Source: Escherichia coli (GTDB taxonomy: Bacteria > Pseudomonadota > Gammaproteobacteria > Enterobacterales > Enterobacteriaceae). Taken from it: a stretch of DNA of 64,000 nucleotides. Within the stretch, counting starts at the first letter, position 1. Each line of letters opens with the position of its first letter. A model generated the notes under the pieces. The model ran no database searches. It worked only from the letters and a program-made list of their open reading frames with translations, and was not told the DNA's origin. The position numbers and the translations under genes are program-made. Location of the stretch: assembly GCF_001677475.2 (NCBI RefSeq), contig NZ_CP015229.1. One strand, given 5' to 3'. Of this stretch, positions 32,204 through 32,356 are shown in pieces.

Positions 32204-32209
32204 TGAAAC

Positions 32210-32244
32210 CTCGTAGAATCTGGTGTGTTACCCGATTCTACGAG
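32210..32244. promoter_or_regulatory. 11-bp perfect inverted repeat overlapping the RBS of the truncated gene
   Basis: CTCGTAGAATC (32210-32220) and GATTCTACGAG (32234-32244), 13-nt spacer. Confidence 0.35.
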
Positions 32245-32356
32245 TTGTCATTTGTTACCGGTCAGTCTACACATTTCAGATGCTGCGTTAAAAAACCCAA
32301 GTACTTCAAGTAGCACATCGTCATCAACACCCAGCCCCAAGATACGGTGATAAAAT

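Follow-up and report, generated by a model that had tools for sequence, protein, structure and literature searches.

In bacteriophage T4, the genes e, soc, 49 and I-TevI carry a Shine-Dalgarno sequence and/or AUG that is sequestered on transcripts originating from upstream early or middle promoters, and a late promoter is located within the DNA coding for the inhibitory structure's 5' strand, such that late transcripts lack this strand and are well translated (PMC3014915). Judged by the fact that at the locus described here the -10 hexamer of a late promoter, LPsit, likewise resides in the 5' arm of a hairpin and a Shine-Dalgarno sequence in its 3' arm, with the start site placed between them by prediction, these T4 genes are its closest analogue, and the principle as such is already known from T4. 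A related case is IS10/Tn10, for which fold-back inhibition of transposase translation was reportedly described by Davis, Simons and Kleckner in 1985. Transcripts that enter IS10 from outside carry a complement to the initiation region and fold back onto it, and transcription from the promoter of IS10 itself begins downstream of this complement. The logic is the same as that proposed for our locus, the difference being that IS10 is an insertion sequence and our locus belongs to a phage late operon. In phage P1, late transcription depends on Lpa and the host protein SspA, which act on sigma-70 polymerase at promoters with a -22 box (PMC10695390, PMC8201110). P1 belongs to another phage family than T4, the late transcription of which uses gp55/gp33 and TATAAATA, and the RNA leaking into the P1 operon would stem from a plasmid prophage's genes of accessory or lysogeny type and not from an early lytic program.

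The locus is part of a 64-kb stretch of Escherichia coli DNA, which is referred to as the window throughout. A sequence-only reading of this stretch had pointed out a perfect 11-bp inverted repeat with a 13-nt spacer and with the GAGG Shine-Dalgarno sequence of a truncated gene in its 3' arm. Inspection of the sequence, a repeat finder and RNA folding all bore this out: the arms, CTCGTAGAATC (32210-32220) and GATTCTACGAG (32234-32244), can be extended to 21 nt each (32204-32224 and 32230-32250), of which 18 are paired (86% complementary) with 5 nt in between. The 11-mer of the arm occurs at this single site in the 64-kb window, even when one mismatch is tolerated in the motif search. Perfect 11-nt inverted repeats with spacers of 3-30 nt were found at nine loci in the window as compared to 0.45 per dinucleotide-preserving shuffle, and the repeat at 32210-32244 is therefore not a product of chance. 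It is one of several such repeats in the window, the others being mostly terminator-like. These other eight perfect inverted repeats of at least 11 nt are located at 15201-15236, 19611-19639, 30863-30888, 36085-36110, 36464-36489, 38407-38457, 57998-58032 and 61069-61097, and several of them lie at gene ends and have the look of terminators.

Folding of the minus-strand RNA from 32262 to 32190 yielded one dominant hairpin of -25.0 kcal/mol, far below the mean of shuffled sequences (-11.3 +/- 2.4 kcal/mol; z = -5.76), and none of 200 shuffles matched this energy. In terms of absolute folding energy over 60 nt, the site ranks only about 1200th among 25,576 segments; since this measure is dominated by the G+C-rich half of the window that stems from a Mu-like prophage, the z-score against shuffles is the relevant measure of stability. 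In the folded long RNA, the Shine-Dalgarno sequence of the gene starting at 32203 is paired within the stem. When the region 31500-33000 was searched with the covariance models of Rfam, no family match was obtained, the sole hit being a sub-threshold one to STnc430 at 31804-31928 (E = 0.63). An intrinsic terminator was considered and rejected: the stem is not followed by a U-tract, the 3' arm continuing with GGUUUCAAUG here and with GGUUGGCAUG in Cronobacter phage JK004, and a terminator scan made no call. The coordinates of all relevant features are compiled in Table 1.

Table 1. Features at and around the hairpin, and related pairings at other late promoters (coordinates refer to the window unless stated otherwise)
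Feature	Position	Strand	Basis or remarks
MuB-like transposition protein gene	319-1278		Mu-like prophage
Tail fibre gene	27958-30249		Mu-like prophage
com	30962-31147		Mu-like prophage
mom	31056-31793		Mu-like prophage; 89% identical to Mu
Right end of Mu-like transposable prophage	31837..31919	+	Repeated TATCTTGAA..GCGCGCTT motifs; last base 31919
Truncated pmgC (P7 tubA; phrog_1851), ORF of 110 aa	31871..32203	-	P1 homology 31920-32203
Shine-Dalgarno GAGG	32209..32212	-	5 nt 5' of ATG 32203..32201
Core 3' arm, mRNA sense GAUUCUACGAG	32210..32220	-	Final three bases plus next G form the Shine-Dalgarno; extended arm 32204-32224
13-nt spacer	32221..32233	-	GGU/ACC, three extra upper pairs; apical loop AACAC 32229..32225
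Predicted LPsit transcription start	32227..32230	-	Seventh base past the -10 hexamer would be A at 32228, in the loop
Core 5' arm, mRNA sense CUCGUAGAAUC	32234..32244	-	Promoter spacer CTCG plus -10 hexamer TAGAAT plus C; extended arm 32230-32250
LPsit -10 hexamer TAGAAT	32235..32240	-	P1 annotation (AF234172, 46608-46613) and P7, mapped via alignment
LPsit -22 box AAATGACAA	32245..32253	-	P1 equivalent AAATGACTA; consensus of nine P7 promoters AAGTGACTT
SH3-domain protein gene	32357-33424	-	Co-oriented accessory gene upstream of LPsit
phrog_3429 signal-peptide protein gene	33466-33942	-	Co-oriented accessory gene upstream of LPsit
phrog_15014 protein gene	33965-34315	-	Co-oriented accessory gene upstream of LPsit
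P7 LPdar	34351-34369 (P7)		CCUCCU / AGGAGG; upstream neighbor lydC
P7 LP23	61543-61561 (P7)		CUCUUCC / GGAAGAG; upstream neighbor parAB-parS
P7 LPpac	97334-97352 (P7)		CUUUCGU / ACGAAAG; upstream neighbor lpa
JK004 LPs			CCAUAAAAUCAGAC / GUCUGAUUUUAUGG; 14-bp perfect repeat including own -10 hexamer, abutting the Shine-Dalgarno; -21.6 kcal/mol

The late promoter LPsit is annotated directly upstream of pmgC/tubA in the GenBank records of phages P1 (AF234172) and P7 (AF503408), and its activity is taken from this annotation. In both records, the annotation of the promoter is confined to its -10 hexamer and -22 box, with neither a stem-loop nor a translational feature; the hairpin is also not mentioned in the searchable literature, although an earlier record may exist elsewhere. 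According to the alignment, the promoter in the window is the positional orthologue of the annotated LPsit, and the promoter block differs from that of P1 and P7 by a single base, which lies in the -22 box. From the nine annotated late promoters of P7, aligned on their -10 hexamers, the pattern AAGTGACTT-N4-TANNNT was derived. The LPsit hexamer TAGAAT fits the TANNNT form, and the -22 box AAATGACAA, located 4 nt upstream of it, agrees with the consensus at six of nine positions (seven of nine for LPsit of P1), a moderate match; at this stringency, the pattern occurs 41 times across the window compared to 38.7 matches expected by chance. A second promoter on the plus strand that would make use of the mirrored TAGAAT, be it a late or a sigma-70 promoter, was rejected, the would-be -22 box CATTGAAAC matching at four of nine positions and a -35 element being absent.

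The sequence-only reading had suggested a hairpin for translational control. The part of this suggestion that stood is the burial of the Shine-Dalgarno sequence in the stem. What has to be amended is the transcript concerned: because the core 5' arm encloses the LPsit -10 hexamer, late mRNA cannot contain that arm and, therefore, the hairpin can form only on RNA that enters from upstream. The predictions for the two transcripts differ in the same sense. The RNA from the predicted LPsit start folds with -7.6 kcal/mol over 80 nt (z = 0.03), that is, without significant structure, and the late leader alone reaches -0.9 kcal/mol, while a fold that takes in the promoter region reaches -22 kcal/mol. 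Once 30 nt of coding sequence are added, however, the computed opening is modest: the unpaired probability of the Shine-Dalgarno sequence rises from 0.18 in the long RNA to 0.28 in the late RNA, and that of the whole initiation region from 0.26 to 0.49. The same promoter overlap bears on the idea that the hairpin is an attenuator of the operon's own message, forming in normal pmgC mRNA and tuning or switching its translation. The Shine-Dalgarno sequence does sit in the 3' arm, and RNAs from the sigma-70 promoters that are predicted further upstream of pmgC in the P1 GenBank record would contain the hairpin. However, an mRNA that starts at the annotated late promoter cannot form the stem, and pmgC is a late, essential gene, as are the tail genes downstream of it (PMC10695390). 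We consider such an attenuator very unlikely.

The gene behind the hairpin is indeed truncated, as had been read from the sequence: its ORF matches P1 pmgC (188 aa) from 31920 onwards only, and its final 16 codons come from the end of an inserted prophage. The segment 31920-32256 shares 96% identity with P7 and with positions 46293-46629 of phage P1, and from 31920 onward, many IncY plasmid prophages of the P1 type match the window at 99-100% identity; the homology to P1-like plasmids ends exactly at 31920. As the alignment with a chromosomal copy of the prophage in another E. coli (H71) likewise ends at base 31919, we conclude that insertion of a Mu-like phage cut pmgC. The whole left half of the window (1-31919) is a Mu-like transposable prophage inserted in pmgC of a P1-like IncY plasmid prophage, and beside the genes listed in Table 1 it encodes terminase, portal, sheath and tape-measure proteins. 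Its right end departs from Mu after mom and has repeated motifs to which transposase probably binds. Neither the left end nor the target duplication is contained in the window, which also does not reach the remaining genes of the tail operon (tub, pmgB, sit and others). Just after mom, the two strands both have T-runs flanking a G+C-rich stem, CAGCGGCATTGGCCGCTG (31816-31835); this stem is likely a bidirectional terminator that would also stop LPsit transcripts leaving the truncated pmgC. P1 pmgC scored as essential in a genome-wide knock-down study (PMC10695390), and since this gene is cut, the plasmid prophage is probably defective. With the operon broken, the hairpin element is left without a working target in the window, where it is a conserved relic of an operon split by the Mu-like prophage.

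Upstream of LPsit, three accessory genes are oriented in the same direction as pmgC (32357 to 34315, minus strand) and are the likely source of RNA that would read through into the hairpin. In every variant examined, pmgC has co-oriented genes directly upstream, the identity of which changes from phage to phage: simABC in P1, two genes for membrane proteins or lipoproteins in P7, and phrog_3429 and phrog_3933 genes in JK004. The sequence-only reading had proposed conservation in P1-family genomes as a check. Across 77 IMG/VR loci, P1 and P7, the block consisting of promoter, hairpin and ribosome binding site is near-invariant, which bears out the proposed conservation; homology ends right before the -22 box, and in the 77 IMG/VR loci, no fewer than six unrelated sequences abut the same point just 5' of this box. 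This mosaic junction is found at 32254-32260 of the window and at the equivalent position in loci L007-L083, and the cassettes that meet there include sim, the P7 lipoprotein genes and the SH3/phrog_3429 genes. How much RNA would cross the junction may vary. The window has a weak terminator-like stem at 32359-32374, and a terminator-like stem is likewise found in P1 in the interval from the upstream gene to LPsit; the amount of read-through may therefore be small in both. In JK004 and plasmids of the L012 type, 12-15 nt separate the stop of the co-oriented upstream gene from the -22 box, and this interval is free of terminator-like sites; for this reason, all transcripts of the upstream gene should run through the hairpin into pmgC there.

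These observations lead us to propose that the hairpin probably makes the translation of pmgC, the first gene of the tail operon, depend on where the transcript began. At LPsit, RNA polymerase would start about 7 nt past the -10 hexamer, within the loop, such that late mRNA would carry the 3' arm only and GAGG and AUG would be open to ribosomes. RNA arriving from the co-oriented upstream genes would carry both arms, fold at about -22 to -25 kcal/mol and bury the Shine-Dalgarno sequence, leaving pmgC without translation. Having an untranslated leader, read-through RNA would probably also be prone to Rho-dependent termination and to decay, and as pmgC would remain untranslated on such RNA, the downstream tail genes would probably be limited by these processes as well. 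A translational insulator in the manner of T4, with the promoter placed in the hairpin, is the best explanation for this element of the P1 tail operon, and we hold it with reasonable though far from complete confidence.

The near-invariance of the core stem among P1-like sequences says little in itself, because these sequences have diverged by only 1-5%. More informative is the clade of JK004, the PmgC proteins of which are 76-78% identical. Here, the -10 hexamer reads TAAAAT and the 3' arm ATTTTA, so that a G:C pair is replaced by A:U through changes in both arms; in addition, the stem gains CGG/CCG and thereby reaches 13-14 perfect pairs, the spacer comprises 12 instead of 13 nt, and the loop sequence is unrelated. 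The deposited annotation of JK004 gene_12 (L006 1553-2119) lets the pmgC homologue start at an internal ATG at position 1595 of the locus. Alignment with P1 PmgC puts the start at 1553, which is 42 nt further upstream and immediately follows the hairpin and the Shine-Dalgarno sequence. In an alignment of 12 sequences, the 13-pair helix is 96% paired; ten pairs are invariant, one shows a one-sided change (G-C to G-U) and two show two-sided changes. The covariation score or the percentage of paired positions was reached in 1 of 500 shuffles, and sliding the 3' partner by 1-3 columns reduced pairing to 28-50%. The three lower pairs (UGA/UCA) are not conserved, the lower helix being 67% paired. 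Since ten of the 13 pairs never vary, the covariation rests on few independent events; within this limit, the comparison of related sequences supports selection on the pairing.

Distant homologues of pmgC fall into two architectures. In eight loci (L086, L087 and L090-L095), pmgC follows straight after a tail-tube gene with no space in between, and promoter and hairpin are both missing; these loci thus serve as natural controls. In four loci (L084, L085, L088 and L089), pmgC heads the unit. L089 (PmgC 53% identical) has the promoter ATGTAACTT-tgca-TACCAT, which is nearly the same as LPdar of P7, and a 13-bp stem, CCAUGGUGCCUUU/GGAGGCACUAUGG, of -22.9 kcal/mol, the 5' arm of which begins inside the -10 hexamer and the 3' arm of which comprises Shine-Dalgarno sequence and AUG. 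L084 (PmgC 68% identical) forms a shorter stem of -12 kcal/mol, the 5' arm of which still contains TAGAAT and the 3' arm GAGG, two bases having been lost from each arm. For L085 and L088, only weak pairings of the -10 region with the AUG were found. When L084 and L085 were aligned to the P1 group by MAFFT, the 3' arm came to lie out of register, and folding was used for these two instead.

This comparison bears on the view that the repeat has no function of its own and is a by-product of the constraints on promoter and ribosome binding site or an accident frozen in a highly conserved block. The 95-99% identity among the P1-like sequences and the ten pairs that never vary would fit such a view. 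It is nevertheless improbable in light of the expected frequency of only 0.45 such repeats per window, the compensatory change in the JK004 clade and the appearance of the same design from independent sequence in L089, L084 and the JK004 promoter LPs (Table 1). Moreover, perfect helices of at least 10 bp between the sequence preceding the transcription start and the initiation region were found for three of 17 late promoters and in none of 642 control measurements, data points that are not independent of each other.

The repeat could also be read at the level of DNA, as an operator at which a dimeric protein binds to both arms and either represses LPsit or positions polymerase there. The perfect palindrome overlaps the -10 hexamer and the predicted start site, and symmetric changes in both arms, as seen in JK004, would be equally expected for a symmetric operator. 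The arm motif is, however, not reiterated in the window, and the spacing of the arms varies among relatives from 13 nt in P1-like sequences over 12 nt in JK004 and 9 nt in L084 to 5 nt in L089, while pairing runs on through unrelated sequence and the arms of 11-14 bp exceed usual half-sites. The departures from Watson-Crick pairing point in the same direction: at helix positions of this kind, G.U occurs on the strand with pmgC sense (L036, L021, L084 and L089) and A.C never does. G.U confined to the sense strand is relevant to RNA and not to duplex DNA, and is therefore what is expected of an RNA structure on that strand and not of a site for a protein on duplex DNA. We consider an operator quite improbable, and somewhat more so than a repeat devoid of function.

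An explanation that shares the RNA structure with our proposal but assigns it another role is a site for RNase III or another double-strand-specific RNase. A cut would separate the mRNA of the upstream accessory genes from the RNA of the tail operon and, in read-through RNA, would destroy or release the initiation region of pmgC. RNase III of E. coli cleaves stems of about 21 bp in length, and the extended stem, with 21 bp including three mismatches, is stable. Only 11-14 bp of it are conserved, though, and the lower helix that would be needed for two helical turns is among the parts that are not (67% paired); the stems of L084 and L089 comprise just 9-13 bp. As cleavage would act only on read-through RNA, this is a variant of our main explanation rather than an alternative to it. 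Processing of this type is unlikely, even if slightly less so than the other readings set against the proposed insulation of pmgC translation.

We also asked how far a pairing of promoter core or pre-start bases with the Shine-Dalgarno sequence extends to other late promoters of the P1 family. In P7, short sequences complementary to the Shine-Dalgarno sequence were noticed at or just upstream of the predicted late starts of LPdar, LP23 and LPpac (Table 1). The pairings at LPpac and LP23 are kept in JK004 through changed bases, LPpac of JK004 reading CUUGCG / CUGCAAG with a compensatory change from U-A to G-C. In JK004 (L096 3728-3797, minus strand), the late promoter LPs, AAGCGACTT-ccca-TAAAAT, precedes an R-like gene and is embedded in a 14-bp perfect repeat, CCATAAAATCAGAC / GTCTGATTTTATGG, with the -10 hexamer in the 5' arm and the 3' arm abutting the Shine-Dalgarno sequence GGAG; the repeat folds with -21.6 kcal/mol (z = -3.0). 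LPs of P7 does not have a 14-bp repeat like that in JK004. Upstream of P7 gene 26 (80865-80883 of the record), an unannotated promoter resembling LPsit, AAATGACTA-gcag-TAGAAT, is located 29 nt before the gene start, and its JK004 equivalent reads AAGTGACTC-agca-TACAAT.

The four P7 promoters with such a pairing (LPsit, LPdar, LP23 and LPpac) are those with a co-oriented, non-late neighbor upstream, whereas the neighbors of LPpro and LPlyz are divergent and LPs follows a late gene; LPmat is the exception. The statistical picture is mixed. Perfect helices of at least 7 bp were found for six of the 17 late promoters as compared to 36 of the 642 control measurements (p = 3e-4; here again, the data points are not independent), and for the P7 promoters, a test of the longest run gave p = 0.047. 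For the same promoters, the accessibility of the Shine-Dalgarno sequence in long versus late RNA did not differ significantly (Mann-Whitney p = 0.47 and 0.33), nor were the duplex energies of the P7 and JK004 promoters significant (p = 0.15-0.18). Given these mixed tests and the dependence among the data points, we regard a recurrent design of P1-family late operons, in which promoter core or pre-start bases are placed opposite the Shine-Dalgarno sequence, as a possibility that is more doubtful than the case made for LPsit itself. If it held true, structural genes would stay untranslated on RNA leaking from neighbors that are expressed during lysogeny (the sim and accessory cassettes, parAB, lydC and lpa), and it would explain how unrelated cassettes can be swapped harmlessly immediately upstream of the -22 box.

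For the tail operon, several consequences would follow if our explanation is correct. Constructs that contain LPsit or the pmgC leader, as in P1-based expression or phagemid systems, should be translated poorly when they include the 5' arm together with an upstream promoter. The principle of a late promoter within an inhibitory hairpin, established in T4, would be extended to a temperate phage with a different system of late transcription. The plasmid prophage would thereby keep its essential tail operon translationally silent despite leakage of transcripts from neighboring genes that are frequently exchanged and expressed in the lysogen.
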